Shown here piece after piece: positions 17,230-50,726 of a DNA stretch of 64,000 nucleotides. The DNA is from Leptolyngbyaceae cyanobacterium (GTDB taxonomy: Bacteria > Cyanobacteriota > Cyanobacteriia > Phormidesmidales > Phormidesmidaceae): NCBI GenBank assembly GCA_965263355.1, contig CBDHHL010000032.1:2720001-2784000 (forward strand), in the 5' to 3' direction. The position numbers and the translations under genes are program-made. The notes below the pieces were generated by a model. The model had not been told where the DNA came from. It did no database searches and saw only the letters and a list, made by a program, of their open reading frames with translations. Every line of letters starts with the position of its first letter. Position 1 is the stretch's first letter.

Positions 17230-17660
17230 GGAAAGCCAGAACCCAACAGCTCAGCCCCCGCGATGTATGGCAAATCGCAGGGGCTGAGGCATAATAAGCC
17301 CATCCCAAGGATTGCTCTGGAATCCGCGGGTCAGCCATCGGTTAGGTGTTGCGAGCACCTGCCGATGGTGCCAAGTTATTAGGTTCTAGTAGAACAGCTG
17401 CACTTGCAGCATTGGGTTACTTTAGACCGGGGGTTAGGCTTTCGTCAAGCTAGCGTAATGGGCTGTATCACGCTGTTATCAAGGCACTGAGGAGATGCTT
17501 CTGGCCGGAAAAATGCTCATTTCACTGGTTTAACCGTCAAAAACGGTAGATATTGACCCCATCGAACAAGGATAGTCTTAGCGACCCCCTAAAACATCAC
17601 ACTCACGATAAGTCTTGGTAGATGGCTCAATAGTTTATTTGAACTATTAAAGCGAGGTTA

Positions 17661-17807
17661 AAGCTTTCTGGATAACTCCGACTCTGGGGGTATTATCCAG
17701 AAAGTTTCTGGGTTAATTGCTTATAAGGTGTTTATCCAGAAAGTTTCTGGATAACTCCGGCTGGAAGGTATTTATCCAGACTTAGTCTGGATAACTCATA
17801 GTTAGGC
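17661..17807 (+). other. attI-like integron site with upstream palindromic direct repeats
   Basis: GGATAAC-5 bp-GTTAGGC (17789-17807); TTATCCAGA..TCTGGATAAC units at about 40-bp period; first cassette follows. Confidence 0.6.
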
Positions 17808-18530
17808 GCGCGACTCGAAGTCGTTCGGGGGAGTTGGAGAGACTCCCAAATGACTCTCCCCGCCAGTGTTCAGGCGGATGTCCGCCTCGGAATGTTCGAC
17901 CAGTAATGGGAGGGCAGCATCAGCAGACGAGGTTAAATGTCGCAGTATCTTCTGAGCCAACAAGAGGGTGCAGGCTAGGGCAAGATTGCTAAGGATAACG
18001 CAAGTGAATCCTTGATGAGGCTTCGTTAATGTGAGTTCTCGAAATGGCTGATACGAGAATTTTGGAGCATATGGGGGTTGGTAGCGTCTAAATACCAATC
18101 AAGAACACCCCGCTCTCGGAGTAAAGAGGAATCCTAAAGCAATCATATCTCCACCCCGTGCGGAACGAGGAAACCCCGATAGAGTCCTGAAAATACTTTA
18201 TTTTCCAGGTAAGCGGAGGGCAACCAAAGCTGAACTCTCTAGCGGGCACAGGATATCCCAAGAAGCGAAAGCTGCCAGCCGAAAAACCGGAATTCATCAG
18301 ATAGGGCATTTGCCAACCTGAAACTCGTGGGATAGGTGATGGACGATGAAACTTAACTGATTGGGAAAAGTTAGGTGCAAGCTTCGGCTTGTAAACGTAA
18401 CCATCAGGACAATCTGAAAAGGTTGTTAAGAATCGGAAAAACTGAATTTCAAGACATTGCTTGATATACAGTGAAAGTTGTACGTACGGTTCTGAACGGG
18501 ATATATTTAAAACCTGCTTCCTTACCCGAC
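17808..18530 (+). mobile_element. ORF-less group II intron, copy 1 (deletions in the 3' part including DV/DVI)
   Basis: Near-identical to 18531-19298; starts GCGCGAC, ends CCTTACCCGAC. Confidence 0.8.
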
Positions 18531-19298
18531 GCGCGACTCGAAGTCGTTCGGGGGAGTTGGAGAGACTCCCAAATGACTCTCCCCGCCAGTGTTCAGGCGG
18601 ATGTCCGCCTCGGAATGTTCGACCAGTAATGGGAGGGCAGCATCAGCAGACGAGGTTAAATGTCGCAGTATCTTCTGAGCCAACAAGAGGGTGCAGGCTA
18701 GGGCAAGATTGCTAAGGATAACGCAAGTGAATCCTTGATGAGGCTTCGTTAATGTGAGTTCTCGAAATGGCTGATACGAGAATTTTGGAGCATATGGGGG
18801 TTGGTAGCGTCTAAATGCCAATCAAGAACATCCCGCTCTCGGAGTAAAGAGGAATCCTAAAGCAATCATATCTCCACCCCGTGCGGAACGAGGAAACCCC
18901 GATAGAGTCCTGAAAATACTTTATTTTCCAGGTAAGCGGAGGGCAACCAAAGCTGAACTCTCTAGCGGGCACAGGATATCCCAAGAAGCGAAAGCTGCCA
19001 GCCGAAAGGCAACCGGAATTCATAACGGGGCAGATAGGGCATTTGCCCAACCTGAAAGGGGGCTGACGTGGGATAGGTGATGGACTTGAATGAAGGTGAG
19101 ATGAAACTTAACTGATTGGGAAAAGTTAGGTGCAAGCTTCGGCTTGTAAACGTAACCATCAGGACAATCTGAAAAGGTTGTTAAGAATCGGAAAAACTGA
19201 ATTTCAAGACATTGCTTGAGCCGTATACAGTGAAAGTTGTACGTACGGTTCTGAGGGGAGGAAGCGGGATATATTTAAAACCTGCTTCCTTACCCGAC
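18531..19298 (+). mobile_element. ORF-less group II intron, copy 2 (intact DV/DVI)
   Basis: Domain V GAGCCGTATACAGTGAAAGTTGTACGTACGGTTC (19218-19251, AGC triad, GAAA loop); DVI and 3' end ACCCGAC; no RT ORF. Confidence 0.9.
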
Positions 19299-19323: not shown

Positions 19324-20190
19324 GTGAGAACCAATCATCCAACCCGACATCAGGTGAAAAGAATTGTACGAAAAGCAGCCCAGAAGATCCTAGGCTTTGA
19401 GCCAGCATTGCCGGCGTTAGAAGCCAAAGTAGCAACCAGCATCTCCGATAATCAACGATACCCCCAAGCCTGTCTTCGAGCTGCAAATGACTATCGACTC
19501 TTTAATTCATTTAGGCAGAGTCATGATTACACACAGATTCTTGAGCATGTCTCCCATGATCAAGGGGCTGCATATCTGGATGAGATAAAGAGATGGCCTG
19601 ACGTGTTTAGCGCACTTCCTGATATAGCCCATAACGATGATTACGGCGGGCCTGTTCTTCATTCTTATCCTGGAATCGCTCCGATATCTCCCAGCACACT
19701 TAGATATGCCAAAGTCTTGTGTGACTTATATAGCTTGTTTGGCTCTCTGGATAACTTTCATATTGCTGAGATTGGCGTTGGCTACGGAGGGCAATGCCGT
19801 GCCATAAATTCAACATCATCGCCAAGTAGTTACACACTTATTGACTTGCAGCCAGTTCTTCAGCTTTCACAGAGATACTTGGACTACTACATCTTGAATT
19901 CACAGCTAGTTTATTCAACCATGAACCAGCTGGCAACCCATGAATATGACTTACTGATTAGCAATTATGCCTTCACCGAGCTTCCAAGGGCAGTTCAGGA
20001 TGTTTATCTCTCTAGGGTCGTTCTGCCTTCGATTCGTGGGTATATTACATATAACCAGATATCTCCAGACTCGTTTATGTCCTATACATCAGATGAGCTG
20101 CTTGAGATGATTCCAGGCTCGGCCAGAGTCGACGAGGTTCCTCTCACTCATCCCATGAACTGTATAATTGTCTGGGGCCAGAATGGCTAA
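19324..20190 (+). CDS. Putative sugar O-methyltransferase, gene cassette
   Basis: SAM motif 'IAEIGVGYGG', 'YTLIDL', 'DLLISNYAFTEL'; stop TAA lies inside the attC R'' GGCTAAC. Confidence 0.8.
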   Translation: MRTNHPTRHQVKRIVRKAAQKILGFEPALPALEAKVATSISDNQRYPQACLRAANDYRLFNSFRQSHDYTQILEHVSHDQGAAYLDEIKRWPDVFSALPDIAHNDDYGGPVLHSYPGIAPISPSTLRYAKVLCDLYSLFGSLDNFHIAEIGVGYGGQCRAINSTSSPSSYTLIDLQPVLQLSQRYLDYYILNSQLVYSTMNQLATHEYDLLISNYAFTELPRAVQDVYLSRVVLPSIRGYITYNQISPDSFMSYTSDELLEMIPGSARVDEVPLTHPMNCIIVWGQNG

Positions 20191-20468
20191 CATAGGCCCT
20201 GAGGCGGACGAGGTCAATAGCAAATGCTAAAATTCTTTTTCTGCTTTAGCTTTAGCGCGGATTCAGACGTTCAAAATTGACCTAATAGTCAGGTGTTCAG
20301 GGAGACTGAACCTGCGCTATTAGATGGGGCTGCGTTGCTGAATGATCATTGATACGGGTTAGCTGTTCATAAGATATTTCTCCAAGTGACTGCATAGAGT
20401 GCTCGATCTTGTTTTGGTTGTTACTGTTTTTATTGCTTGTTTTCAAGTGCAATTTGTTCTTCTTGCAC

Positions 20469-21752
20469 TTATTGTTTAGGTTGTTGTTGAACGCCTAATA
20501 GCTTTACTAGTGGTGATTTTTTACGTCTCAGTGCAGCCAGATATTTCTCCTCGTCATAGGGTACACCATCTTGCCAACAACGCCAGAGAATTCTCCCCCA
20601 CTTATAGGCCAAGGCTCGAATCGCTTTTTGATGTGACTTACCCTTTAGTCGTTGTTGTTGATAAAACGCTTGTGACCAAACCGAGCGAGGCCTGGCATGA
20701 GCAACCCACTCGACAAAGGTTTGTCTTAGAAAGATGGGGCAAGACCAACGCCAATGAACCCATCGCTTTTTGCCACTCTCTTCTTTGACTGGCGCGATGC
20801 CAATGTAACTCAAAAAAGACTGAGCGCAATTAAAGCGAGTTCGGTCTTCACCAAAGGCCGCTAACAATCGTGGCGCTAAATGAGGCCCAGCCCCTGGCAA
20901 TGCCTTAAAAAGTTCTGCATCCGGCAGCGATTCAAATAACGAGGCAATTTGACGCTCAAACACAATCAATTGCGACAAGACTACTTTCAATAAAGCGACT
21001 AAGCCTTGCATTAACGCTTGGGCTGGAATGGTGATAGCGTCGTCTCGCGTCAAGGGTGGCCCAGCGTCTTGAATTTGCTGAGTTCGCCGTTGAATCGTGG
21101 TTTTGCGAATGATGTGATGGCTACGAAAGAAGTCTCTCAAGACATCAGCTGTAGCAGCTTGAGCCTCTTGTAAATTGGGAAACTGTTCAAGGAATTCACA
21201 AAACGCAATGGTGTCTTTATCTTCAAACCAGTCGAGCACTTGAGGAAAATAGGATTTGAGTGCGGCGGTGATCCGATTCGTCAGCCGGACCTTCTCACCC
21301 ACTAACATGCGACGGGACTCAACCCATTGTCTCAATGCACGATGCTTCGGACAACCTGATGTCCAGATATCAAGTTTTTCACCATGTTTTTGCATCAATT
21401 CGACGATCAGTTTGGCATCGATGGGATCCGATTTGGCCCGCGAGGGCTGAAACGCTTTGCGATAGTTCGCGACCGTTCGAGGATTAACGGGCACCAGCAC
21501 CAAATTCTCGTATTGACATAGGCCATAAAGGAGGGGGCCGCGTTTCTGCTCCAACCCAACCAGCAACTTGGACTCTCCATAGGTTTTTCGTAAGCGATTG
21601 ACCCAATCTGCAATGGATTGGGGCTTGGATTGAATCGTGCAATGCTCCCAGGTTTCGTTCTGGCAGTCATAGAGCGCAATATCATGTTTACGATCTGCCC
21701 AGTCAATCCCGATATAAGCCGCATATGCTGTTGGACTTTGATTGAGTTTCAT
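20469..21752 (-). CDS. IS110 family transposase/recombinase
   Basis: DEDD: 'IGIDW', 'GLEQ', 'AKSDPIDA'; 'LPGAGPHLAPRLL'; catalytic Ser motif 'EESGK'. Confidence 0.95.
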   Translation of the reverse strand: MKLNQSPTAYAAYIGIDWADRKHDIALYDCQNETWEHCTIQSKPQSIADWVNRLRKTYGESKLLVGLEQKRGPLLYGLCQYENLVLVPVNPRTVANYRKAFQPSRAKSDPIDAKLIVELMQKHGEKLDIWTSGCPKHRALRQWVESRRMLVGEKVRLTNRITAALKSYFPQVLDWFEDKDTIAFCEFLEQFPNLQEAQAATADVLRDFFRSHHIIRKTTIQRRTQQIQDAGPPLTRDDAITIPAQALMQGLVALLKVVLSQLIVFERQIASLFESLPDAELFKALPGAGPHLAPRLLAAFGEDRTRFNCAQSFLSYIGIAPVKEESGKKRWVHWRWSCPIFLRQTFVEWVAHARPRSVWSQAFYQQQRLKGKSHQKAIRALAYKWGRILWRCWQDGVPYDEEKYLAALRRKKSPLVKLLGVQQQPKQ

Positions 21753-21789
21753 TGTGCTAAATTGAGGGTGTTTTTGTTTGACGGAGAGT

Positions 21790-22080
21790 CTGCCACCAGT
21801 CGCCTTGCGAAGTGATTATGGAAAGGGTTATTTCCCTGCTCCCTGAGGATTCGTTGGGCAGCGATTGGACTGGCTTGAAGGGCGATTCGATATGTTAGTA
21901 GTCATCTTCTGACTGGCGCTGCATAGTCGTCCCCCCAAGCTAGCAGATTCTCTCCTTTCTTGACTCTATGCTTTTTTCCAGATTTAGAACATCTAAAGGG
22001 AGGAGCGATACGATATGTTAGTAGACATCTATACTGTCGTCCAATGCATAGTCGTCTCCTCCCATTTTTCTATGCTCGTC
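21790..22080 (-). ncRNA. Predicted bridge RNA with two target loops and one donor loop
   Basis: Stem-internal loop-stem units at about 21998-22063, 21872-21941 and 21807-21854; loop 7-mers match attC and the element junction. Confidence 0.75.
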
Positions 22081-22260
22081 CCCCCATAATCCAGATGCAG
22101 AAGACGGGAGTATGGGCTGGCTTCACTGCCGAGATTCTGGCCCGCTTCTGATCTGGAGCGTTAGGCTGCATCCCATACAGAATCCAGTTCCCTACTGACT
22201 CCTCACTTCTGACTTCTCGCATCGAGAAACCGTCTCGCTTTATATTAATACCCTTGAAGC

Positions 22261-25200
22261 TTATTCCTCAGGGCAAGCTTCACGAATTGCCGCACGTACA
22301 GCATTCGCAAGTAGCTGAACTTGAGGAGATTTCATTATCCTATAGTGATTACCTGGAATATGAACAATACCAAACTCTCCTGTAAGCACTGTGTCCCAGC
22401 CCCGATCATCGGTTTCCTCCTCTGCAGAGCAGAGTATCACTCGACCACCATAGGGTTGCACCTGATATCGTGCTAATGCCGTCTGATTAGCTTTGAAGAT
22501 GCGGAATAGATAGGCCATTTGCGTAGGCGTCATTTCCGGTGGTAGTAAGTTCATCCCCTGGGCAACGGCAAAGAGGTGTTCCAGCTGAGCATTAGGTGCG
22601 AGTTTTGCCAGTTTCAATCGATCTAACGACAGCTCACTATCAAACAAACCATTTAAATCAGTGATTAAAGACTGTAAATCTGCCGTGCCAATTTCCTCTG
22701 ATGTCGCCGATTTTGATGCCTCTATAGGGCTGGCTATTACCTGTGGCGTATAGCTATCAATCAGTACAACAAGCGCTACAGCTTCTCCGATAGATTGAAG
22801 CTGTTGAGCCATTTCTATGGCAATAACACCGCCCATTGACCATCCTGCTAAGTAATAAGGGCCATGGGGTTGAACGCTTTTTAAGGCCTTAATATAAGTC
22901 ATGGCCATCGTTTTAATTGAGTCTAAAGGCGTAACGTTATGATATGGTTCTGGTGATTGAAGACCGTACAGCGGTTGGTCTCGACCCAAATGATGGGCTA
23001 ATTCGGCGTAGCAGAAAACATTTCCACCCACTGGATGAATACAAAAGAGTAAGGGCAAAGTTCCATGGGGCTGGATCGGAACGAGGGGAGAGTGGTCTAC
23101 AATCGCATTTTGGCTGTTCAGTAGTCGAGCTTGGGCTTCAATGGTGGGATCAGTAAAGAGCACTGGCAATGGTAAATTAACTCCCAACTCTTGTTCTACT
23201 TGAGCCATTAGTCGCACCGCTAACAGGGAATGTCCCCCTAGCTCAAAGAAATCATCGTGTACTCCGACACTATCAAGGTTGAGGACTGCCGACCAAATTT
23301 GGGATAGTTGAAATTCTAAAGTGGTACGGGGTGGGGTAAAACTTACAGGAAAAGAGAGATCGACTTTAGGCCGGGGAAGAGTGCGACGATCAACTTTACC
23401 ATTGGGCGTCAAAGGTATTGCCTCCAAACGGATAAATGCACTGGGCACCATATAAAGGGGTAACTTAGTTTTAACGAATTCGCGCAACTGACCAATTGTC
23501 GATTCTCTCTTAGTGACAACATAGGCAATCAGGCGTTTATCTTCTGGGATATCTTCTCGAACAGTAACAACTGTTGAACTGACGTCTGGGTGTGTAGCTA
23601 AAACTGTTTCTATTTCTCCAAGCTCTATACGAAAACCCCGGATTTTAACTTGATTGTCAATTCGGCCCAGAAACTCAATGTTCCCATCTTGAAGATAACG
23701 TGCTTTATCTCCAGTATCATAAAGAATAGCATCTGGGTGAACACTAAAGGGATTTTGAACAAACTTCTGGGCAGTTTTTATCGGATCGTCATACCCCACA
23801 GCCAAACATTCTCCTCCAATATATAAAAAGCCAGGCACCCCTATCGGGCAGGGGGTCAGGCAAGAATCTAAGATATAATACTGTGCATTTTGGATGGGTC
23901 TGCCATAGGGAATGCTGGTTAAATTCTGATTGATAGATTCGATCCGATAATAATTCGACCAAATAGTTGCTTCGGTTGCTCCACCCAGACTGACAAGAAG
24001 AATGCTGGGAAATACTTTCTTCACCTGCTCAGGCAAGGCTACTGGAATCCAGTCACCACTCAAGAAGCCTAACCGGAGGGAACTGTTTGCTATGGATTTA
24101 GATGGCAAGAACGAAATCAATTGTTGAAGGGTTGCTGGGGTAGAATCCCAAAAGGTAATTGACTCCTCACAGAGAATATCAGCCACCTTCCGAGGATCTT
24201 GTAATTCTAAATCTGAAGCTACTCGAATTGACCCACCAGCCGCTAGCAAGCCAAAGATATCGTAAACAGATAAGTCAAAACACAAAGAGGTAACAAACAG
24301 TAGGCGATCGTCAACACTCACATTAAAAGTCTGGTTGACCCAATCAATTAAGTTGACAGCAGATCTATGACGTACGATGACGCCTTTGGGTACACCAGTA
24401 GACCCCGACGTATAGATAACATAAGCCGTATTATTCGGCATTACTGATGTTTCGGGATTTCGAGTGGACATTTGTGATAAATGCCAGTTTGTTGCCCAGT
24501 GTTTCTGTAGTACAGTCAAAGCAACTTGCTGTCTATCATTGCTTTCAGTGTTATGTTTTTTAATGATCACATCGTATCGATAGCGAAGTTCATTTTCAAA
24601 TCCCTGCTCTCGCTTAAGAACCGAAATCTCAGCAATAGGCTCTAATTGAACAGCTAAATCCCAGAAAAATTTCTCATCTACATATAGCTCACTACCCAGA
24701 TTAGTTTTCGCCTGGATAGGGTGTTCACCATCCTGATTAGACCTAAAGGCTATCAATGATTGTTCAAACTCGTCTTTGCGGCGAGCGTCCATGATATCTG
24801 ATAGCAAGATCGCTCCTCCTGGAGCTAAGCGTCTTACAGCAAGATCAAGAACGTGCTGTAAATAAAAAGCTCCTGGGAAAAACTGAACCGTACTCGCGAA
24901 GATAATAAGGTCAAAGGGGCCATCTTCAATGGAACCAATCTCATCCGCAAAAGCCGTCACGAGCTTAATAAAATTCCAATTATTCTCCCGAAGAATCTCA
25001 GCGTTACGTGCTTGAGTGATTTCTGAAGGATCAACACCAACATAGAGATCAACCTCAGGAGCAATTGCGAACATAATTTCTCCTGAACCACAGCCAATCT
25101 CTAGCACTCGTTTCCCGCTTCCAAAATATGGTTTCGCTAATCCAACAACGTGACATTTATACTCATCAACTTCGGACTCGGAAAAAGGCTGACTGGTATA

Positions 25201-28200
25201 GCTGCTAATAAATCCACCTGCCGTGACGCGATCGCTAGCCTGCTGGGCTACCCAATCCCATAACGATCGCACAGCCTTACGATCAATTTTTTCAGGATGG
25301 GGGGTGGGATCATCTATATCCAGGCAGATGACATGGGTTAGTTGTGAGTATTTCCATAGCAACTCTTGTGCAGTTCGCAGGTATTTTTGTTGGGTGATAA
25401 GACAGCTTACTGCTTGGGATGTAATAATCTTTTCTACTCGCGCAATTGGCCATTGAGGATCAAAAGGAATGTAAGCTCCACCGGCTTTTATTGCACCCAT
25501 CACGGCAGTTGGAATATTCGCAGAACGGTTCAAATAGATACCAATCTTCACTTCTGGGCCAACTCCGAGTGTTTGTAAGTAGTGTGCGAGTTGATTGGCG
25601 CGAACGTTTAGCTCCTGATAAGTCAGTTGTCTCTGATTAAACAGAATTGCCACTGCATCTGGACGCTGTTTCACTTGGGCTTCAAATAACTGATGAATGC
25701 ATTTATCCTTAGGGTAAGGGGCTTCAGTTTGATTCCATTCAACCAACAATTGGTGCCGTTCTATAGCCGTGAGCAAGGGTAGTTCTGTCACTGATTGTTG
25801 AGGGTTAGCGACAATCGCCCTCAATAGGGTCTCAAAATGCCCCACCGCTCGCTGAATCGTTGCTGTATCAAACAGGTCTTGATTATATTCCCAATAACCA
25901 ATTAGCCTATTATCCCGTTCCTCCAAGGAGAGAAACAGGTCAAACTTGGCGCGACCACTTTCCATTTGCAGCCACTCAAATCTAATTCCTGGCAGATTTA
26001 AGGGTTCCATGGGTGCATTTTGCAGGGCGAACATGACCTGAAAAAGAGGCGTATGACTGAGACTGCGTTCCGGTTGTAGTGCTTCTATTAACTGTTCAAA
26101 GGGCAAGTCTTGGTGGGCATGGGCATCTAACGCGGTTTGCCGGACTTGGGCCAAGAGTTGAGGAAAGGTCAGATTGTCGTCGAAGCGCGATCGTAACACC
26201 AACGTATTCACAAAGAAGCCAATTAATCCTTCAATTTCACTACGATTGCGGTTGGCAATGGGGGTGCCCACCAAAATATCGGTTTGACCGCTGTAGCGGT
26301 AGAGTAGGCTACTAAAAGCCGCAAACAACGTCATAAAAAGGGTTACCCCTGATTGTTGACTCAGATGTTTAAGCTGTTCCGTAAGGGTATGATCCAGTTG
26401 AAAAAAGATGCGATCGCCTTGATTAGACTGCACCGTCGGTCGAGGATAATCCGTAGGCAAGTCCAATAATGGGGGCGCATCGGCTAACTGTTGCCGCCAA
26501 TACTCCAATTGTGGCGCAAGAGATTGAGCGGTGGCAGGTTGTCGCTGCCAAGCGGCAAAGTCGGCATATTGAATGGCCAGTTCAGGTAAGGGTGAGGAGT
26601 CCCCTTCGATGAATGCTCCGTAGAGCACCTCCAATTCATGGACCAATACTCCCGTAGACCAACCATCGGTAATAATATGATGCATAGTGAGAAGCAACAT
26701 ATAGTCATCCTTCGCCAATTGCATCAACATGACCCGTAACAAGGTATCGTGAGCCAGATCAAAGGGTTGTTGTACCGCATCTTGACCCAGCTGTTGGACC
26801 TCAGCCATTTGTTGTTTTGGCTCAACATGCTGTAAATCTACTATCGGCAGTGGTAAATCTCTATGTGGCGATATTACCCGGAGCGGTTTCCCCTCAACAG
26901 ATTTGAAATTTGTTCGTAAGCTATCGTGTCGTCGGACAATTTCTAGTAGAGCTTGATGGAGTGCCTCCACATGCAGCGTCCCTGACAAACGTAAGCCCTC
27001 CTGCTCATTGTAGGCGACACTCTGGTCTTGTAATTGATCTAAAAACCAGAGACGTTGCTCAGCGAAGGATAGGGGTAAGTCTCCTTGACGGGACATCTGT
27101 TGAATCAGTGTTCGCTCTGAGGGCGTAGGTTTGGATTCGGTGTCCAGAATATCTTGGCTCAGTTGGGCGATGGTAGGAGATTCAAATAACCGATGCAGCG
27201 ACAGTTCCCGTTGGAAAACATCCCGCACTCGTGAAATTAGCTGGGTGGCTTGAATTGAATCTCCGCCCAGCATAAAAAAATTATCCAAAACCCCAATTTC
27301 GTTCAGCCCCAACACGTCGGCCCAAATATTAGCTAATAGCTCCTCCATAGGGGTCCGGGGATTCACCAGCTTGACATCTAGAACAGGACGGGAGCGATCG
27401 GGGGCTGGCAAATGCTGACGATCGACCTTACCGCTGGGGGTAAGGGGCAATTGATCGAGGACCACAAATGCCGAGGGAACCATGTAATTGGGCAGGGTTT
27501 CCGTCAGAAACTGACGCACCTGAGGAATCAGCTGATTTGTTTTCTGGCCACTGTATGGTTGGTTCGCATAGGCGTGCCAAGGTTTGGCCTTATTAGGAAT
27601 CTCACCGGGGGGCTGATCAACGGCTCCATGAGCCCTATCACCCAGGATAACGTTTGTGCCCTGCCGTACAAAGATGACATCGTAGTAGCCCTCATTGCCT
27701 TTACTATCCCAAGTGAGATGAACTTGGTACGGAATTTGATCTTGCAACGTCCACCAGACTTCCGGTTCAATGGCCTTGCTCTTGGCATCGTGTAAGGTAA
27801 TCTCTTGGCGAAGTTCCTTTACCGTTGGGGGACAATGATCCACATTTGACAATAGCGACAGGGCGATAACGTCAGACCCAATTCGGGCATTCGGCACATG
27901 GTTGACCACTAATAGGTCAGGGGTCATGTCCACTAGTTTTTGGCGGATGGCATGGATTGCCTCCTCGCCATCTTCTTCACACCAGTCCAGAAAAACAGGT
28001 GCGGTAGGTGTGGCAAATTCTTTATCGATGTGCAACACCACATCGTAACGAAATCGGGTCAGCTCATTTTGATGATATCCCCGCTTTAGGTGAATGTCTA
28101 CATGGCTAATGCGGGGCAGATAGGCCTTTAATGCTGTGAAAAACTCAGGATCAACCATCAATCGTTGTTCACGGGTGCGACGATCGCGAATACGTCTGCG

Positions 28201-30243
28201 TAGGTCTGCTACCGGGAGAGAATCTGGCGATTGATAGAGCTGCACTGAGGTATGGAACATTTCCAACAACGGTAAACTCAAAATATCTCCCAGGAAAATT
28301 TGTCCGCCTGGTTGAATTCTATCCACTGCGGTTTCAATAACTGACACCAAATAATCAATACTGGGGAAGAATTGAATCACTGAATTAGAGATAGCTGTAT
28401 CAAAGGATGTCGTCACAATCTCTCCCAGGGTATGGGCAGCAGCCTGTTGCAGAACTACAGATGCTGCAACTGAAGGTTCAAGGATTTGACCGGCCTTAAG
28501 TTGTCGCTCTAGATAGCGAATGGCCTCACCGGATAAATCTGTAGCATAGTAGTGTTGACACTTAGGTGCCATGCGAAAAAGCAGTAGCCCTGTGCCACAG
28601 CCAATTTCTAAAAGGCGCTGGGGTTGCAATGATAAGATTCGCTCTACCGTATAGTCCACCCATTCCTGTACATGATTTGGGTCCAGATCTGTGCCTGTGT
28701 AGGAGTCGTTCCAGCCGCCAATGTGAAAATCAGCATCCTGCTCCTGATCAGGTTGAATATAGGCTTCATCCCAAATTTGCCGCCATTGTTCCGTTTGTTC
28801 AACGACATCCTGAGTTGCCTTGACCTTAACCTCAGAGCCGGAAACAACATAGGCTACTAAGCGCTTTTGACCGCTGGGTTCTGCTCGCGCTGTTACAACA
28901 GCTTGGGCAATATCAGGATGTTGTAACAGGGTTGCTTCGATTTCTTCCAACTCAATGCGATAGCCCCGTATCTTAACTTGGTGATCAATACGGCCTAAAC
29001 ATTCAATGGTGCCATCGGTATGGTACCGGGCTAAATCTCCAGTTTTATAAAGGCGATCACCCTCCTCTAAATCAGCGTCCTGGGCAAAGGGACTGGGAAT
29101 AAATTTTTTAGCGGTCAACTCCGGACGATTGAGATATCCTCGAGCGACCCCTATGCCCCCAATGTGCAATTCTCCAACTTCACCAACAGCGACAGGGGTT
29201 TGATTCTCATCTAGAATGTAAGCCTGGGTATTACTAATCGTCCGCCCAATAGGGATGGTCGCATCCGCCGATTGCACCCGATGTATCGTGGCCCATACCG
29301 TAATTTCAGTAGGACCATATAAATTCCACAACGATCCCCCCTTAGGTAATAACTGGGCCGCTAGCTCTGGTGATAAGCGGTCCCCAGTAGAAATGATTTT
29401 CAAGTCACGACACCCTGACCATTTAGCATTCATGAGCATTTGCCAGGTCGCAGGGGTAGCTGACATCACTGTCACACGGTGTTGATGAATCAACTGAATT
29501 AACTGATCAGGATCTTGGGTTGCTGTTTGACTGGCCACGACCACCTTACCGCCAACGGTCAATGGACCAAGCAATTCTGGAACTGAAACGTCGAAAGAAA
29601 TGGTTGTAACTGCAATAGACGTATCCGTGTCCCTTAACCCTGGGCAAATGGCAATCGCCAATAGTAGATTCACCACGGAACGATGAGCGATCTGTACCCC
29701 CTTAGGTTTTCCGGTCGAACCAGAGGTGTAGATAATGTAGGCTAAGTTACTAGGTACAGCAGTAGAAATGGGATTAATGGGAGAATGTTGGCCGATGTGT
29801 TGTTTAGTGCTACCAAGGCAGATTAGTGTAATGTTCTTGGCAAGGTGTATCTGGACATTAGTGGCTGGCGATTGAGTTACAATAATTTTTAGACCCGCAT
29901 CTTGCACCATAAAAGCAAGGCGATCACTAGGATAGGCTGGATCTAAAGGAACATAAGTGCCACCAGCTTTCATGATGCCGAGCATCGCAACGACCATTTC
30001 TAAGGAGCGTTCAATGCAAAGTCCCACCAGTACCTCTGGACCTACCCCCAAGGATTGCAGATAATGGGCAAGTTGATTGGCCTGTTGATTTAATTCCTGA
30101 TAGGTAAGTTGCTGCTCCTCAAAAACCAGTGCCACAGCATCCGGAGCCTGCATCACTTGGGCTTCAAACATTTCATGAATGCATCGATTCCAAGATGTGC
30201 TGGTATCAGTATTGCGCATTTCTGAGGCGTTAGCTTCTTGCAT
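22261..30243 (-). CDS. Bimodular NRPS: A(MT)-T-C-A(MT)-T-TE
   Basis: YTSGSTG x2, LEIGCG x2, LGGDSI, HHIITDG, LGGHSL, GWSMGG. Confidence 0.95.
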   Translation of the reverse strand: MQEANASEMRNTDTSTSWNRCIHEMFEAQVMQAPDAVALVFEEQQLTYQELNQQANQLAHYLQSLGVGPEVLVGLCIERSLEMVVAMLGIMKAGGTYVPLDPAYPSDRLAFMVQDAGLKIIVTQSPATNVQIHLAKNITLICLGSTKQHIGQHSPINPISTAVPSNLAYIIYTSGSTGKPKGVQIAHRSVVNLLLAIAICPGLRDTDTSIAVTTISFDVSVPELLGPLTVGGKVVVASQTATQDPDQLIQLIHQHRVTVMSATPATWQMLMNAKWSGCRDLKIISTGDRLSPELAAQLLPKGGSLWNLYGPTEITVWATIHRVQSADATIPIGRTISNTQAYILDENQTPVAVGEVGELHIGGIGVARGYLNRPELTAKKFIPSPFAQDADLEEGDRLYKTGDLARYHTDGTIECLGRIDHQVKIRGYRIELEEIEATLLQHPDIAQAVVTARAEPSGQKRLVAYVVSGSEVKVKATQDVVEQTEQWRQIWDEAYIQPDQEQDADFHIGGWNDSYTGTDLDPNHVQEWVDYTVERILSLQPQRLLEIGCGTGLLLFRMAPKCQHYYATDLSGEAIRYLERQLKAGQILEPSVAASVVLQQAAAHTLGEIVTTSFDTAISNSVIQFFPSIDYLVSVIETAVDRIQPGGQIFLGDILSLPLLEMFHTSVQLYQSPDSLPVADLRRRIRDRRTREQRLMVDPEFFTALKAYLPRISHVDIHLKRGYHQNELTRFRYDVVLHIDKEFATPTAPVFLDWCEEDGEEAIHAIRQKLVDMTPDLLVVNHVPNARIGSDVIALSLLSNVDHCPPTVKELRQEITLHDAKSKAIEPEVWWTLQDQIPYQVHLTWDSKGNEGYYDVIFVRQGTNVILGDRAHGAVDQPPGEIPNKAKPWHAYANQPYSGQKTNQLIPQVRQFLTETLPNYMVPSAFVVLDQLPLTPSGKVDRQHLPAPDRSRPVLDVKLVNPRTPMEELLANIWADVLGLNEIGVLDNFFMLGGDSIQATQLISRVRDVFQRELSLHRLFESPTIAQLSQDILDTESKPTPSERTLIQQMSRQGDLPLSFAEQRLWFLDQLQDQSVAYNEQEGLRLSGTLHVEALHQALLEIVRRHDSLRTNFKSVEGKPLRVISPHRDLPLPIVDLQHVEPKQQMAEVQQLGQDAVQQPFDLAHDTLLRVMLMQLAKDDYMLLLTMHHIITDGWSTGVLVHELEVLYGAFIEGDSSPLPELAIQYADFAAWQRQPATAQSLAPQLEYWRQQLADAPPLLDLPTDYPRPTVQSNQGDRIFFQLDHTLTEQLKHLSQQSGVTLFMTLFAAFSSLLYRYSGQTDILVGTPIANRNRSEIEGLIGFFVNTLVLRSRFDDNLTFPQLLAQVRQTALDAHAHQDLPFEQLIEALQPERSLSHTPLFQVMFALQNAPMEPLNLPGIRFEWLQMESGRAKFDLFLSLEERDNRLIGYWEYNQDLFDTATIQRAVGHFETLLRAIVANPQQSVTELPLLTAIERHQLLVEWNQTEAPYPKDKCIHQLFEAQVKQRPDAVAILFNQRQLTYQELNVRANQLAHYLQTLGVGPEVKIGIYLNRSANIPTAVMGAIKAGGAYIPFDPQWPIARVEKIITSQAVSCLITQQKYLRTAQELLWKYSQLTHVICLDIDDPTPHPEKIDRKAVRSLWDWVAQQASDRVTAGGFISSYTSQPFSESEVDEYKCHVVGLAKPYFGSGKRVLEIGCGSGEIMFAIAPEVDLYVGVDPSEITQARNAEILRENNWNFIKLVTAFADEIGSIEDGPFDLIIFASTVQFFPGAFYLQHVLDLAVRRLAPGGAILLSDIMDARRKDEFEQSLIAFRSNQDGEHPIQAKTNLGSELYVDEKFFWDLAVQLEPIAEISVLKREQGFENELRYRYDVIIKKHNTESNDRQQVALTVLQKHWATNWHLSQMSTRNPETSVMPNNTAYVIYTSGSTGVPKGVIVRHRSAVNLIDWVNQTFNVSVDDRLLFVTSLCFDLSVYDIFGLLAAGGSIRVASDLELQDPRKVADILCEESITFWDSTPATLQQLISFLPSKSIANSSLRLGFLSGDWIPVALPEQVKKVFPSILLVSLGGATEATIWSNYYRIESINQNLTSIPYGRPIQNAQYYILDSCLTPCPIGVPGFLYIGGECLAVGYDDPIKTAQKFVQNPFSVHPDAILYDTGDKARYLQDGNIEFLGRIDNQVKIRGFRIELGEIETVLATHPDVSSTVVTVREDIPEDKRLIAYVVTKRESTIGQLREFVKTKLPLYMVPSAFIRLEAIPLTPNGKVDRRTLPRPKVDLSFPVSFTPPRTTLEFQLSQIWSAVLNLDSVGVHDDFFELGGHSLLAVRLMAQVEQELGVNLPLPVLFTDPTIEAQARLLNSQNAIVDHSPLVPIQPHGTLPLLFCIHPVGGNVFCYAELAHHLGRDQPLYGLQSPEPYHNVTPLDSIKTMAMTYIKALKSVQPHGPYYLAGWSMGGVIAIEMAQQLQSIGEAVALVVLIDSYTPQVIASPIEASKSATSEEIGTADLQSLITDLNGLFDSELSLDRLKLAKLAPNAQLEHLFAVAQGMNLLPPEMTPTQMAYLFRIFKANQTALARYQVQPYGGRVILCSAEEETDDRGWDTVLTGEFGIVHIPGNHYRIMKSPQVQLLANAVRAAIREACPEE

Positions 30244-30644
30244 ATCCTGTACATCTAGTTACTGCAGTATCCTATACTAGGGGATTAGGAGTATGAAGAG
30301 TGTTTTTCATCACTGCATAAAAAAAGGATACAAGACGTCGCCAAAGCACCGTCAAAGACAGGCGGAGATGCCTAACATAGTCCCTGAGGCGGACGAGGTC
30401 AATAGCAAAGGCTAAACTTCTTTTTCTAGTTAAGCTTGAGTCTGTATTCAGACATGCAGGATTAACCTGATACTCAGTTGTTCAGGGAGGAGATTGTTCT
30501 CTCTCAGAGAGGGCTGCTTTGCTGTATGACCGTGAATACGGGTTAGCTGTTCATCGGATATTGCTCCAAGTGATTACATCGAGTGCTCGATCTTGTTGTT
30601 GTAGTTGTAGTAGTTGTTGTTATCTGCCTTTAAAGTATTACTTG

Positions 30645-31988
30645 TTATTTTTGTGATTGTTGTTTAGGTTGTTGTTGAACGCCCAATAACTTTGCTAGTG
30701 GGGACTTTTTGCGTCTCAGTACAGCTATGTATTTTTCTTCATCATAAGGGACACCATCTTGCCAACAGCGCCAGAGAATTCTTCCCCACTTATAGGCCAA
30801 GGCACGAATCGCTTTAGGATGACTTTTACCTGATTGCTTCTGCTGTAGATAAAAGGCTTGGGACCAAGTCGAATGTCGACGCGCTTGATCGACCCATTCA
30901 ACAAAGGTTTGTCTGAGGAAAATTGGACATGACCAACGCCAATGAACCCAGCACTTTTTGCCGCTTTCCTCCTTGACAGGGGCAATACCGATATAGCTCA
31001 TAAAGGCCTGAGCCGACGTAAAGCGCGTGCGGTCTTCGCCAAAGGCGACTAACAGTCGTGGCGCTAGATGCGGTCCGGCTCCCGGTAAGGCCTGAAATAA
31101 CTCGGCATCTGGCAATGACTCAAACAGGTTAGCAATCTGTTGGTTAAATTCAGTTAATTGTTGTAAAACAACCTTAAGCAGAGTGATTAGACTTAAAGTC
31201 AGTGTTTTAGCCGGTATCACAATGGCGTCATCCTCAGTCAGCGGTGGGCCTGCGTCTTTGATTTGCTGAATCCTACGCTGAATCGTCGTCCGTCGAACAA
31301 CATGATGGCGATGGAAAAACTGAGTGATTGTTTCAGGGGTCGCTGCTTGGGCCGCTTTGACATCGTCGAACTGCTCAATAAACTCACAAAAGACCTGCGT
31401 ATCTTTATCTCTAAACCAATCAAGAACTTGAGGAAAATAGGATTTGAGTGATGCGGTGATACGGTTAGTCAAACGCACCTTTTCGCCCACTAACATCCGA
31501 CGCGATTCTACCCATTGTCTGAGGGCACGATGTTCAGGGCACCCTGCCACCCAAGCCTTTAGTTTATTGCCATGCTTACGCATTAACTCCACCAGAATAC
31601 GGGCATCTACGGGGTCGGATTTGGCTCGTGATGGCTGAAACGCTTTTCGATAGTTGGCCACCGTTCTGGGATTAATGGGAAACAGCACTAAATTGTCATA
31701 CTGACACAGCGCATAGAGTAGAGGCCCTCGCTGTTGTTCAAGAGCAACCGCAATTTTGCCAGGACCATACCGTTCTCGGAGTTGTGTGACCCAATCCAGA
31801 ATAGCTTGAGGATGGTTTTGAATAATACTATTTTTCCAGGTGTCTGTTGCACAGTCATATACCGCAATGTCATTTTTTCGGTCAGCCCAGTCAATGCCCA
31901 CATAGGCCACATAGTCAATCGACTCGATGGCCTTAGGCATAGGTGTTTCTGAAGCTGAGTCTGTAGTTATGGTTGGGGCTATTGTCAT
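30645..31988 (-). CDS. IS110 family transposase/recombinase (diverged paralog of 20469-21752)
   Basis: 'VGIDW', 'ALEQ', 'AKSDPVDA', 'EESGK'. Confidence 0.95.
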   Translation of the reverse strand: MTIAPTITTDSASETPMPKAIESIDYVAYVGIDWADRKNDIAVYDCATDTWKNSIIQNHPQAILDWVTQLRERYGPGKIAVALEQQRGPLLYALCQYDNLVLFPINPRTVANYRKAFQPSRAKSDPVDARILVELMRKHGNKLKAWVAGCPEHRALRQWVESRRMLVGEKVRLTNRITASLKSYFPQVLDWFRDKDTQVFCEFIEQFDDVKAAQAATPETITQFFHRHHVVRRTTIQRRIQQIKDAGPPLTEDDAIVIPAKTLTLSLITLLKVVLQQLTEFNQQIANLFESLPDAELFQALPGAGPHLAPRLLVAFGEDRTRFTSAQAFMSYIGIAPVKEESGKKCWVHWRWSCPIFLRQTFVEWVDQARRHSTWSQAFYLQQKQSGKSHPKAIRALAYKWGRILWRCWQDGVPYDEEKYIAVLRRKKSPLAKLLGVQQQPKQQSQK

Positions 31989-32029
31989 TGTGTTAGATTA
32001 GAAGCCAATTTGTTTAACAGGGGTACGTC

Positions 32030-32310
32030 TGCTACCTACTTGAAGAGCGAAAAGATTATGGAAGCGATTGAATCCCCTTCCCTGAGAGTTCGTTTAAGAC
32101 AAGTAGGACAAAGACCAGAGGCGAGGCGATATGTTAGTAGTCATTGACTGACGTGCGTTGGATAGTCGTCCTCTAGTCCTAGCAGACAAGCCCCATTTTT
32201 TGACTTTACGCTTTTCTTGACAGTTGGGATGAGTGAAGATGAGGAGCGATGCGATATGTTAGTAGACATGCAGGCTGTCGCTCGTTGCATAGTCGTCTCC
32301 TCGGTTCGTC
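32030..32310 (-). ncRNA. Predicted bridge RNA with two target loops and one donor loop
   Basis: Units at about 32241-32302, 32118-32173 and 32047-32093 with the same scaffold as element 1 but different variable guides. Confidence 0.75.
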
Positions 32311-32440
32311 CCCCATAACTGCGTCGGTGCGGACGGAACCAAAGTTATTGCTGAGGATTTAAGGTTATCTGCCGCCGCACAACTTCATCGTTAGCCCAAT
32401 AACCTGAAAAGCAGCTTCACCAGGGAAAAAAGACGCATTA

Positions 32441-34015
32441 ATGGCGAAGAAAACGAAATCAACAAAACAGCAAAAATCCTTTGAGCAAAATCTTTGGGAC
32501 ACCGCCGATAAGCTGCGCGGCACGGTGGAATCTTCTGAGTACAAGCATGTGGTCCTCAGTCTGATCTTCCTGAAATTCGTCAGCGATAAATTCGAGACCC
32601 AGCGCCAGAAGCTCAAGGACGAGGGCATGGGCGACCACCTAGACATGGTCGAGTTCTACGCCAAGGATAATGTCTTCTACCTACCCGAGGCGGCCCGCTG
32701 GTCTACGATCCAAGCGCAATCGAAGCAGGATGATATCGCCCTGCGCATTGATACTGCCCTACATACGGTGGAAAAGACGAATAAGGCGCTGCGCGGTGCG
32801 TTGCCGGATAACTATTTCTCCCGTTTGGGCCTGGATACGGCGAAGCTGGCTTCGTTGATCGATTCCATCAGCGATATCGACACGGTGGCGGACAAAGAAG
32901 AAGACGTGGTGGGCCGGGTCTACGAATATTTTCTCGGCAAGTTCGCGGCGACGGAGGGCAAGGGCGGCGGCGAGTTTTATACCCCTAAGTGTGTGGTTAA
33001 TCTGAACGCGGAGATGATTGAACCTTACCGGGGCAAGATCTACGACCCCTGTTGTGGTTCGGGCGGTATGTTTGTGCAGTCGGTTAAGTTTGTGCAGAGC
33101 CATCATGGCAACCAGAAGGATATTTCGATTTACGGTCAGGAACAGACGGGTACGACCTACAAGCTGGCCAAGATGAACCTGGCAATTCGGGGGATTGCGG
33201 GCAATTTGGGCGAGGTGCCTGCGGATACGTTCTTCAAGGATCAGCATCCGGATCTAAAGGCGGACTTCATCATGGCGAATCCGCCGTTTAACCTGAAGCA
33301 ATGGCGGGCGGATGATGAACTTACGGATGATCCGCGCTGGGCAGGTTATGAGACGCCGCCCACGGGCAATGCCAACTATGCCTGGATTTTGCACATGGTC
33401 AGCAAGCTTTCGGAGAACGGTGTTGCTGGCTTTGTGCTGGCCAATGGTTCGATGAGTACGAACACAAAGGGGGAGGGTGAGATCCGCCAGAAGCTGATCG
33501 AGAACGATCGCGTTGATTGCATGATCGCGCTGCCGGGCCAGCTTTTTTACACGACTCAGATTCCGGTTTGCCTTTGGTTTTTGACGAAGAATAAGCGGGC
33601 GCAGACGGTCACCAGCCACAGCGAAAGTAACTATCGCGATCGCCAGGGCGAAACCCTATTCATTGATGCTCGCAATATGGGCAGCATGGTCGATCGCACC
33701 CACAAGGAACTAACGGCGGCGGATATTGCCACCATCGCCCGTACTTACCATGCTTGGCGGGGGGAGGCGAAGGATGGAGCCTATGAAGACCAGCCGGGGT
33801 TCTGCAAGGCGGCGACGTTGGCGGATATTAAGGCGAATGACTATGTGCTGACGCCGGGGCGGTATGTGGGGGCGGCGGCGCTGGAGGATGATGGGGTGCC
33901 GTTTGAGGTGAAGATGGGGGAGCTGACGCAGCGGTTGTATGGGCAGATGCGGGAAGCGGAGAAGTTGGATGGGGTGATTCGGAAGAATTTGGAGGCGTTG
34001 GGCTATGGGGAGTAG
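32441..34015 (+). CDS. hsdM: Type I R-M methyltransferase subunit
   Basis: 'GEFYTP', 'YDPCCGSGGM', 'ANPPFN'. Confidence 0.95.
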   Translation: MAKKTKSTKQQKSFEQNLWDTADKLRGTVESSEYKHVVLSLIFLKFVSDKFETQRQKLKDEGMGDHLDMVEFYAKDNVFYLPEAARWSTIQAQSKQDDIALRIDTALHTVEKTNKALRGALPDNYFSRLGLDTAKLASLIDSISDIDTVADKEEDVVGRVYEYFLGKFAATEGKGGGEFYTPKCVVNLNAEMIEPYRGKIYDPCCGSGGMFVQSVKFVQSHHGNQKDISIYGQEQTGTTYKLAKMNLAIRGIAGNLGEVPADTFFKDQHPDLKADFIMANPPFNLKQWRADDELTDDPRWAGYETPPTGNANYAWILHMVSKLSENGVAGFVLANGSMSTNTKGEGEIRQKLIENDRVDCMIALPGQLFYTTQIPVCLWFLTKNKRAQTVTSHSESNYRDRQGETLFIDARNMGSMVDRTHKELTAADIATIARTYHAWRGEAKDGAYEDQPGFCKAATLADIKANDYVLTPGRYVGAAALEDDGVPFEVKMGELTQRLYGQMREAEKLDGVIRKNLEALGYGE

Positions 34016-35087
34016 GAAAAGCTCAAAGCTCCAAAAGGGTCAAGGCGCAGACTTACCTGAAACCTCACAACTGGTGCAGGATATCAGACAACTCATTGAT
34101 GGAACCCGTGCGGGGGTAGCAGCTACAGTGAATGCGGGCTTGACCCTGCTGTATTGGCGTGTTGGCGAACGGATTCGCTGTGAAGTGCTCTTGGAAGAAC
34201 GCGCTGAATACGGCCAGAAGATTTTGCCGACACTGTCTGCAAAATTAACGAAGGATTACGGAAGAGGATGGAGTGAGCGTAATCTGGCCTATATGGTTCG
34301 TTTTGTTGAAGTATTTCCACAGATTGAGATTTTGCAGACGCTATGTGCAAATTTGAGCTGGAGCCATTTCAAAGACATTATCTACATTGATGACCCACTG
34401 AAGCGTGAGTTCTATGCGGAGATGTGCCGGGTCGAAGGTTGGAGTGTCCGAACGTTACGGCAAAAAATTGATGGGATGCTCTATGAGCGCACGGCGATCT
34501 CAAAGCAACCTGATGAGGTGATTCAGCATGAGCTAAAGGAACTGAAGGAGGCTGACAAGCTTTCTCCGAATCTGGTCTTTCGTGATCCTTACTTTCTGGA
34601 TTTTCTGGGGCTGAAGGATCGCTACCTAGAGAAGGATTTGGAAGATGCGATTTTGCGAGAGCTGGAAAGCTTTCTGCTGGAGCTGGGCAGTGGGTTTGCG
34701 TTTCTGGCGCGGCAACGGCGTATTCAACTGGATAATGATGACTACTATATCGACCTGCTGTTTTATCATCGCCGCTTAAATCGGCTGATTGCCATCGATC
34801 TGAAGCTGGGGGATTTTAAGGCGGAATATAAGGGGCAGATGGAGCTGTATCTGCGTTGGCTGAGTAAGTATGAAAAGCAAGCGGGGGAGAATGAACCGCT
34901 GGGGCTGATTCTCTGTGCGGGTAAAAAGCAGGAGCTGGTGGAACTGCTGGAGCTAGACCAAGCGGGTATTCATGTGGCGGAGTATTTCACGGAGTTGCCG
35001 CCGAGAAAGTTGCTGGAGGATAAGCTGCATCAAGCCATTGAGAATGCTAGGGAGCGGATTGAAAATAGGGGGAGTGAAGATGAATAA
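34005..35087 (+). CDS. YhcG/DUF1016 PD-(D/E)xK nuclease-domain protein
   Basis: 'LSWSHF', 'RDPYFLDFL', 'LELGSGFAF', 'YIDLLFYHR', 'GQMELYL'. Confidence 0.9.
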   Translation: MGSRKSSKLQKGQGADLPETSQLVQDIRQLIDGTRAGVAATVNAGLTLLYWRVGERIRCEVLLEERAEYGQKILPTLSAKLTKDYGRGWSERNLAYMVRFVEVFPQIEILQTLCANLSWSHFKDIIYIDDPLKREFYAEMCRVEGWSVRTLRQKIDGMLYERTAISKQPDEVIQHELKELKEADKLSPNLVFRDPYFLDFLGLKDRYLEKDLEDAILRELESFLLELGSGFAFLARQRRIQLDNDDYYIDLLFYHRRLNRLIAIDLKLGDFKAEYKGQMELYLRWLSKYEKQAGENEPLGLILCAGKKQELVELLELDQAGIHVAEYFTELPPRKLLEDKLHQAIENARERIENRGSEDE

Positions 35088-35179
35088 GCGGTTAGAACTG
35101 ACCCAGACGCTGTATCGGCAGAGGTTGGAGTCGGAGCGGTTGGATGGGGTGATTAAGGAGAGTTTGGAGGGGTTGGGTT

Positions 35180-37379: not shown

Positions 37380-37587
37380 GAACGTATTCAAATAAGAATG
37401 TCTTTTATGCTGGCTGCTTGACACAAGTGCCTCAAACGTAGAATATCTGTAATGAAAATTCGAGATTTTCAGGCGATGTGTCAAGCAATCAGCGTCTTTT
37501 ATGACCTGTAATCTATTGCCTAGTGTGTGTGTTCTGGAAAAATCATCTGAGATATCTAGAATGTTGTATGGTAACTGGGTGTAGGGG

Positions 37588-40543: not shown

Positions 40544-40627
40544 AGCTAACATTGCGTTGCAACGGCGGAGCATAAGCAGTTGATCAAAGGCTAAAGTTAC
40601 TACCGCCGTTGAACTTCGCCGTTAGCC
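40544..40627 (+). other. Intact attC site
   Basis: AGCTAAC-attgc-GTTGCAAC-GGCGG...CCGCC-GTTGAAC-ttcgcc-GTTAGCC. Confidence 0.85.
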
Positions 40628-50639: not shown

Positions 50640-50726
50640 AGCTAACCAGTCGCTGCACCGGAACGCTCAAACATGGTTACTTCAGTCGCGAAGGTTATCT
50701 ATGTCCGGTGAGCTTAGTCGCTAGGT
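50640..50726 (+). other. attC site with a GCTAG right core
   Basis: AGCTAAC-cagtc-GCTGCACC-GGA...TCC-GGTGAGC-ttagtc-GCTAGGT. Confidence 0.75.

Follow-up and report, generated by a model that had tools for sequence, protein, structure and literature searches.

Two IS110-group elements inserted into attC sites of a Leptolyngbyaceae cyanobacterium belong to a probably independent attC-targeting lineage with two putative target loops in its guide RNA

We analysed a stretch of 64,000 nucleotides from a Leptolyngbyaceae cyanobacterium (assembly GCA_965263355.1, contig CBDHHL010000032.1, positions 2,720,001 to 2,784,000; hereafter the window, with positions counted from its first letter), in which two insertion sequence (IS) elements of the IS110 family are situated inside two attC sites of integron cassettes. 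These elements represent an IS110-group lineage that almost certainly came to target attC independently of the known IS1111-attC elements and is convergent with them. The leader of each element encodes a putative bridge RNA with two target-binding loops instead of the usual single one, and we estimate the probability that both loops are active and differ in specificity at roughly 0.7. A further layer, namely a natural multiplexed bridge RNA in which both loops act, the extra one under a promoter existing only in the excised circle, so that the target range of the circle would be wider than that of the integrated copy, is proposed tentatively, its chances being somewhat below even.

Element 1 (20192..22088, minus strand, 1897 bp, left end at 22088) separates the R'' box GGCTAAC of attC1 (20185..20191, plus strand), in which the upstream cassette gene has its stop codon, from the spacer, L'' box, variable stem, L' and R' boxes of the same site (22089..22166, plus strand; R' GTTAGGC at 22160-66). 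Element 2 (30377..32317, minus strand, 1941 bp, left end at 32317, with the boundary set from homology and the donor guide) similarly lies between the R'' box GCCTAAC of attC2 (30370..30376, plus strand) and the part from the spacer to R' (32318..32396, plus strand; R' GTTAGCC at 32390-96). The boundaries are uncertain by a single nucleotide, or by two at site 1. The original prediction had placed both elements right after TAAC, with the transposase antisense to the cassettes, and its coordinates proved to be exact. Removal of the elements yields attC-like hairpins of 85 and 86 bp, comprising TAAC, a 5-nt spacer, an L box with one extrahelical base, a 6-nt spacer and GTTAG. In a hairpin scan, neither site was detected in the occupied window, and both were detected once the elements were removed; a profile derived from 31 further insertion sites recognized the emptied attC2 with E = 1.8e-15 and the emptied attC1 with E = 0.004. 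The window sites have the attC features, that is, the R and L boxes, the spacers, the extrahelical base and the bottom-strand hairpin, as given in PMC4889954 (here and below, statements on the literature refer to the excerpts of the cited papers). Two further sites are empty: the intact attC3 (40544..40627, plus strand) and attC4 (50640..50726, plus strand), with a degenerate R' box GCTAGGT and no T beside the cut. The four sites are spaced 8-10 kb apart, and no integrase was found among the 45 window open reading frames (ORFs) scanned (of 88 listed).

An empty attC1 is found in assembled contigs. In each of two runs of one sample, X1 and X2, one contig fuses position 20191 to 22089 and is shorter by 1897 nt, omitting exactly the bases of element 1. 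Thus, the empty attC1 exists as DNA precisely as rebuilt, and the earlier claim that removal of the elements restores canonical attC sites is borne out at this site, the natural empty form not differing from the reconstituted one. With depths of 15.5 and 3.4, the empty-site contigs are as deep as single-copy flanks. We infer that they more likely reflect a pre-insertion state than an excision product. In X1 the depth of element 1 is about 3.5 times, and that of element 2 about 6.7 times, that of single-copy flanks, hence both elements are multi-copy there; loose contig ends show further element copies adjoining other TAAC boxes, and at one loose end in run X3 the left target of the site, read by eye, matches loop 1 of element 1 at 7/7 positions. 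No empty-site joint was seen for element 2 in the run contigs, and no circle joint was seen in the contigs of four runs, although contigs lose rare forms. As X1 and X2 may be close to the source of the window, they do not count as independent support for the remaining claims. The contigs of X1-X3 also have one extra C at 32309, in the run at the left end of element 2, which may be copy variation or an assembly slip.

The recombinases of element 1 (20469..21752, minus strand, 427 aa; D17, E68, D109, D112, S326) and element 2 (30645..31988, minus strand, 447 aa as called from a putative start) both match PF01548 and PF02371, i.e. the RuvC-like DEDD domain and the Tnp domain with the catalytic serine. 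Their scores against NF033542 of NCBIfam are 176.6 and 174.9 bits (cut-off 140), and the D, E, D, D and S catalytic residues align in both. Judged from sequence, both elements encode intact IS110-group bridge recombinases. The two proteins are 75% identical, hence these are two distinct elements rather than copies of one. The non-coding layout is that of the IS110 group, with the guide region 5' of the recombinase and the bottom-strand guide preceding the top-strand guide. The only terminal symmetry is the short subterminal repeat GGACGA/TCGTCC, at 20206/22076 in element 1 and 30391/32306 in element 2; the longest end-to-end complement is 6 bp in the window elements, and 4-10 nt at variable positions across 54 elements. 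The original prediction had recognized both the upstream guide-like region and the short repeats, while missing the two target loops in the former and the 270-nt 3' non-coding region, which is also present.

For comparison with the IS1111-attC elements we used the sequences of ISPa21, ISKpn4, ISPpu24 and ISPa25, ISPa21 being identified from the order of cassettes given in PMC6739498 together with a 97.7% match to an annotated ISPa21; ISPst6 was considered from papers. Both groups enter attC on its R'' side, in antisense orientation relative to the cassettes, and are RNA-guided. However, all four comparison elements insert 6 bp beyond TAAC, inside L'', in agreement with the target table in PMC13604230, whereas the insertion point of the cyanobacterial lineage is TAAC +0 or +1. 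The IS1111-attC elements also have long subterminal repeats, of 11-13 bp with extensions of 7 and 3 bp, a downstream non-coding region containing the guide, and a shorter recombinase of about 347 aa. Element 1 is 24-25% identical to ISPa21, ISKpn4 and ISPa25, compared to 43% for ISEsa2. In a quick tree of 63 rows (elements with broken or partial ORFs excluded, long branches flagged), the attC elements form one clade (Shimodaira-Hasegawa-like approximate likelihood ratio test, SH-aLRT, 99) within the ISEsa2-like group (99), far from IS1111-attC; in the quick trees, again with long branches flagged, the recombinases group with ISEsa2 and Streptomyces IS110-type rows. An approximately unbiased (AU) test on 20 rows (10 vs 10) rejected a joint clade with ISPa21, ISKpn4 and ISPa25 (p = 8.46e-05). 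The phylogeny proposed as a check in the original prediction thus does not nest these transposases in the IS1111-attC clade, and the separate lineage it suggested is upheld. Its assignment to cyanobacteria stands for every named genome with readable flanks, all such hosts being cyanobacteria, and is less certain beyond them, as a gammaproteobacterial sister (L030) has an identical right guide and lacks the flanks. The loop pattern had no match in viral contigs, nor in a sample of 150 genomes from the class surrounding that of L030.

Relatives were gathered from genome contigs (59 loci), metagenomes (the best 80 of 356) and plasmids, and pattern searches of genome samples gave matches in 3/401, 19/90 and 8/130 genomes. 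The 286 records parsed yielded 176 element starts and 90 distinct insertions. The right flank is GTTA in 51 of the 55 insertions having one, and GTTAG in 40 of 55. The attC hairpin score was at least 7 in 48 of 87 insertions with a sufficient left flank (4.7% of shuffled flanks) and at least 8 in 36 of 87 (0.7% of shuffled flanks). In 17 of 49 insertions, compared to 9 of 294 control positions, an ORF terminated no more than 40 nt from R''. Among the 36 high-scoring sites the distance from the cut to the L box takes two values differing by one base (22 and 14 sites). IntI above the cut-off was present in 9 of 10 carrier genomes checked. By sequence criteria, attC targeting by the lineage is strong yet non-exclusive. 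The T beside the cut, present in 86 of 87 sites, cannot be taken as a selected core, since most intact attC sites listed share it. Three copies in one genome (L208, L182 and L189 in G022) sit within an apparent repeated transposase gene, which is not an attC site, yet still before GTTAG. At L053 (~2689), an inserted element is flanked by the R'' box of attC on one side and by the right end of another member on the other; such tandem stacking is expected if the end-attC junction itself is a target.

The guide register was set from 38 relatives with non-attC targets, where the 9 nt past the shared loop-base motif match the element's own left flank at 7.13 positions, compared to 5.23 after permutation. 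The donor-binding loop occupies 21808..21854 in element 1 (minus strand; left guide CTCAGGGA at 21840-47, right guide CCATAAT at 21815-21) and 32048..32093 in element 2 (minus strand; CTCAGGGA at 32079-86, CCATAAT at 32055-61). The left guide CTCAGGGA matches the right end of the element, and CCATAAT is complementary to the joined ends, i.e. to the circle junction. In the target loops, the right guide CUAAC reads GTTAG, the invariant R'' box, hence the cut is fixed directly after TAAC. The left guide in the attC clade starts with T(G/C)CA, which corresponds to the L'' box surrounding the extrahelical base, and extends 3-5 nt into the variable spacer. Three handshake bases beyond the right guide pair with the last three bases of the element after strand exchange, and by the rules described for IS621 in PMC13626964 such pairing favours insertion over excision; these bases covary with the element end in three members of one subclade, which amounts to one evolutionary event. 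Minimum free energy folding of the whole leader did not cleanly open the guide loops, and the loop structure hence rests on stems and homology. Two earlier candidate interpretations were abandoned: a 4-nt CATA core breaks the -10 box of the junction, mismatches the donor guide and yields non-canonical spacers, and the notion of two identical loops aimed at the element-attC junction was dropped after the register had been fixed from the non-attC relatives.

A canonical bridge RNA consists of one target loop and one donor loop, whereas the leaders of the window elements contain two tandem, near-identical target-loop hairpins followed by one donor loop. In element 1 loop 1 is at 22000..22062 (minus strand; left guide TGCATTGGA at 22040-48, right guide and handshake at 22014-21) and loop 2 at 21880..21936 (minus strand; left guide TGCAGCGCC at 21915-23, right guide and handshake CTAACATA at 21891-98). 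In element 2 the respective loops are at 32242..32302 (minus strand; left guide TGCAACGAG at 32281-89, right guide at 32255-62) and 32119..32175 (minus strand; left guide TCCAACGCA at 32154-62, right guide at 32130-37); the outer limits of all four loops are approximate. Complete leaders were available for 68 events, of which 49 have two target loops and 19 have one; 16 incomplete leaders were set aside, and the tests excluded L001 (odd register), L053 (inserted in tandem) and a single duplicate. In the quick tree, the single-loop forms are basal, and the duplication was gained once (SH-aLRT 96) and lost once (L025). Both loops keep the right guides and the stems, the latter with distinct compensated pairs. 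The left guides differ, being mostly TGCATTG in loop 1 and TGCAGCG or TCCAACG in loop 2, and they are unlike in the first 7 nt in all 25 pairs counted. In L263 the closing stem of loop 2 is of the loop-1 type, and in L072 the inner stem of loop 1 is of the loop-2 type, which possibly reflects exchange between the loops.

Over 84 events, the better loop matches its own site at 5.21 of 7 positions compared to 4.71 after permutation, and at 6.04 of 9 compared to 5.48 (p = 5e-5 in both cases). Among the 49 dual-loop events the better fit is provided by loop 1 in 21, by loop 2 in 21, and there are 7 ties. When one loop was permuted with the other fixed, the fit deteriorated at 7 nt (loop 1, p < 0.0001; loop 2, p = 0.0004) as well as at 9 nt (loop 1, p = 0.001; loop 2, p = 0.011). 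After thinning, with each distinct guide pair represented by a single event (n = 16, 200 draws), loop 1 had a median p of 0.002 and loop 2 one of 0.026. The choice of the loop did not depend significantly on the spacer class, 5 or 6 nt (p = 0.21). In the window, the site of element 2 fits its loop 2 best (7/9 vs 4), and the left target of the empty attC3 matches loop 1 of element 2 at 7/7 and loop 2 at 8/9; attC3 is hence predicted to be a free target of this element. Elsewhere, a 75-bp remnant in an attC site (L177/L183, G043:C1 ~1920900) consists of the left end and loop 1, stopping at TAT of the right guide; the left target of this site matches loop 1 at 9/9, and we read the deletion as guide DNA misused as the right end.

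A possible division of labour between the loops is suggested by the promoters. The joined ends form a sigma70-type promoter, with the -35 and -10 boxes separated by 17-18 nt, in all 54 elements having both ends (in silico), and this fixes the boundary chosen originally. In element 1 the -35 box TTGACC is at the right end (20212..20217, minus strand) and the joined ends give TTGACC-17-TATTAT; in element 2 the -35 box is at 30397..30402 (minus strand). The junction -10 box sits 34-37 nt 5' of loop 1 in 39 of 43 cases, with no internal box there. Of 44 linkers, 38 have a TAnnnT box, a candidate internal -10, at a fixed distance 5' of loop 2, compared to a mean of 2.3 and a maximum of 8 in shuffles; the box is TAGAGT in the linker of element 1 (21963..21968, minus strand) and TAAAGT in element 2 (32203..32208, minus strand). 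Such a box is also present in 10 of 15 single-loop leaders and in 4 of 4 ISEsa2-type leaders. This suggests that loop 2 is ancestral, and loop 1 is a copy placed under the circle promoter. Transcription of loop 1 from the circle-junction promoter, and of loop 2 with the donor loop from an internal one, would be a two-promoter arrangement to which we give a little less than an even chance.

Taken together, these elements are probably explained as follows. The guide RNA of ISEsa2-like IS110-group elements would have been reprogrammed to attC, independently of IS1111-attC: in sequence, the donor loop reads the element's own junction, CUAAC of the target right guide reads the R'' box with the cut after TAAC, and the target left guide reads the L'' box around the extrahelical base together with the variable spacer. 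In the derived clade, including both window elements, the target loop is duplicated, the copies having different left guides. Each loop could then provide the target side of the synaptic complex, allowing one element to cover two spacer classes of a target that keeps its shape but varies in sequence. As a weaker part of this explanation, loop 1 would be produced only from the circle junction, and loop 2 and the donor loop from the internal -10. The insertion would displace R'' by 1.9 kb from L'' and lock the cassette against IntI, probably permanently.

A number of observations weigh against this explanation. After thinning, loop 2 reaches p < 0.05 in just 70% of draws; at 9 nt loop 2 alone gives p = 0.21, and in the first, smaller parse, where some second loops were missed, it gave no signal. 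The 7-nt window and the 1-nt register shift were picked after inspection of the data, and the insertion events are related by descent. The site of element 1 fits both of its loops equally and moderately (5/7 each), and in G442 the five parsed copies of the single-loop element show a poor fit to their guide. As for targeting, 39 of 87 sites score below 7 as attC, many of them resembling truncated or degenerate attC, and some are clearly non-attC (L208, L212, L041). Carriers are not enriched in IntI within one order (12/19 vs 35/71, p = 0.31; hand count). A promoter scan of the leader detected no full sigma70 site, the internal box being a consensus match among relatives.

The strongest competing possibility is that one target loop guides insertion, and the second one, retained after the duplication, has some other role (a processed target-only RNA of the CazIS110-1 or seekRNA type, a decoy or a folding aid), its guide drifting within attC-like motifs. 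The lack of significance of loop 2 alone at 9 nt agrees with this, as does the ability of single-loop members to hit attC, which makes a second loop unneeded; L025, having lost one loop, is still located in attC, and target-only RNA is the main species reported for CazIS110-1 and ISEc21. We nevertheless consider it unlikely, as the best fit is split evenly between the loops, each loop improves the fit given the other, and rare guide variants follow rare targets (loop 1 of L060; loop 2 of L236, L037 and L011), while the left guides differ in every counted pair and both loops retain their stems and right guides.

Less probable still, with perhaps one chance in a dozen, is that the six-base TGTTAG match and recognition of the attC hairpin by the protein account for most of the specificity, the left guides being of little importance and their fit reflecting a shared history of elements and host attC pools. 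The modest left-guide fit (mean about 5/7) and the one-base shift in the distance between the cut and the L box could be understood in this way, and in ISPpu10 the left guide is permissive, the right guide strict, and the target gated by a stem-loop. However, the fit to the own guide exceeds the permuted one also at the variable positions 5-7 and after thinning, the existence of non-attC insertions implies that the hairpin is dispensable, and the relatives use the left guide strictly. Hairpin recognition can also be compatible with guidance by both loops. Finally, that the elements are divergent IS1111-attC members whose non-coding region moved upstream is very improbable: the common target class and antisense orientation, and a few IS1111 members with an upstream non-coding region, would agree with it, but the low identity (24-25%), the other cut position, the lack of 11-13 bp subterminal repeats and the AU test (p = 8.5e-5) refute it, unless long branches mislead both trees.

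The lineage may be compared with several known systems. The branch of ISEsa2, ISCfr13 and ISCps4-5 shares with the window lineage 43% identity, the upstream leader, the donor left guide CTCAGGG, the loop-base motif and the internal TAnnnT box, and differs in having other targets, a single target loop, and occurrence in Proteobacteria and metagenomes. The bridge RNA of IS621 and ISCro4 (Durrant 2024; Hiraizumi 2026) is similar in the junction promoter, the target loop placed 5' of the donor loop, the left and right guides, and the handshake bases favouring insertion; it differs in the single target loop, a 2-nt CT core (at most one shared T in the window lineage) and a recombinase of 328-341 aa, and the sequence match is weak (E = 1e-11). 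ISPpu10 (10.64898/2026.03.19.712850) also has a hairpin target, a loose left guide and a strict right guide, but targets repetitive extragenic palindromes (REP) of constant sequence and is described with one target loop. Group IIC-attC introns are likewise a mobile class entering the attC bottom strand near the same end, but are retroelements with unrelated chemistry.

No named IS was present among the 120 best protein matches listed. Neither an IS110-group attC lineage nor a bridge RNA with two target loops was found in the excerpts of the literature searched, which included PMC11187229, PMC11208160 (term search of supplements), PMC13626964, PMC13604230, PMC3001079, PMC6739498, PMC11616780, PMC5034289, PMC4889954, 10.64898/2026.08.31.748434, 10.64898/2026.03.19.712850, 10.1101/2025.10.25.684509 and 10.64898/2026.10.21.760802, ISfinder being outside this search. 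In its consulted part, 10.64898/2026.08.14.744561 reports tandem non-coding repeats beside IS110 genes and does not call them target loops, and the catalogue of 32,190 RNAs may hold this clade unremarked. If the explanation is true, this would be the third independent attC parasite, after IS1111-attC and the IIC-attC introns, having arisen through reprogramming of a bridge RNA from the opposite branch of the family, with a different cut position. With its two target loops, it would be a natural case of one bridge recombinase with two target programs, allowing for a direct test of the pairing of target and donor loops in the synaptic complex. The system would also make it possible to measure what a hairpin target adds to guide pairing, and could serve as a template when multiplex targeting is designed. 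With regard to integrons, it would offer a route by which cyanobacterial cassettes become fixed in place.

IntI needs a folded attC site, and the insertion puts 1.9 kb between R'' and L'', hence the cassette should be locked. The earlier suggestion that cassette excision is blocked until the IS excises therefore remains plausible in its first part, the boxes being separated and the blocking being expected, while its second part is probably too hopeful. ISEc11 and CazIS110-1 formed circles without a detectable rejoined target; for IS621, one study observed mainly release of a single-strand circle, and in another one the sites were restored by excision, yet insertion was the stronger reaction in vitro by about 2,000-fold (PMC13626964). 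Restoration of attC after loss of the IS is hence doubtful. In the order that includes G004, 47 of 90 genomes had an integron integrase above the family cut-off, and integrons look common in these filamentous cyanobacteria.

The cassette gene terminating within the R'' box of attC1 encodes a putative sugar O-methyltransferase (TIGR04371; 19324..20190, plus strand); this cassette was not found with the query used in 61 related genomes. Upstream of it, 17801-19298 (plus strand) contains two tandem ORF-less group II intron copies (17808-18530 and 18531-19298), with an Rfam domain 5/6 match at 19216-19298. They lie directly 3' of a GTTAGGC core site and 25 nt 5' of the methyltransferase gene, hence cassette 1 seems to begin at this core site; unlike IIC-attC introns, they are in sense orientation. 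Just 5' of the first core site, 17660-17780 comprises three 40-bp repeats with an internal palindrome, possibly a recombinase binding site; a similar pair is present in L009, and the repeat was not found at 8 IntI loci.

Between R' of attC1 and R'' of attC2 (22160-30376) there is an inverted 8-kb non-ribosomal peptide synthetase (NRPS) gene (22261-30243, 2660 aa). As in a true cassette, R' GTTAGGC of attC1 and R'' GCCTAAC of attC2 are exact complements, making a giant NRPS cassette possible, although this match has few free bases and could be due to chance. Type I restriction-modification pieces (32441-40244 and 48948-50467) adjoin attC2-attC4; they include hsdM (55% GC), a YhcG-like nuclease, hsdS interrupted by ISL3 and ISAzo13-type elements, and a second, split N6 methylase.

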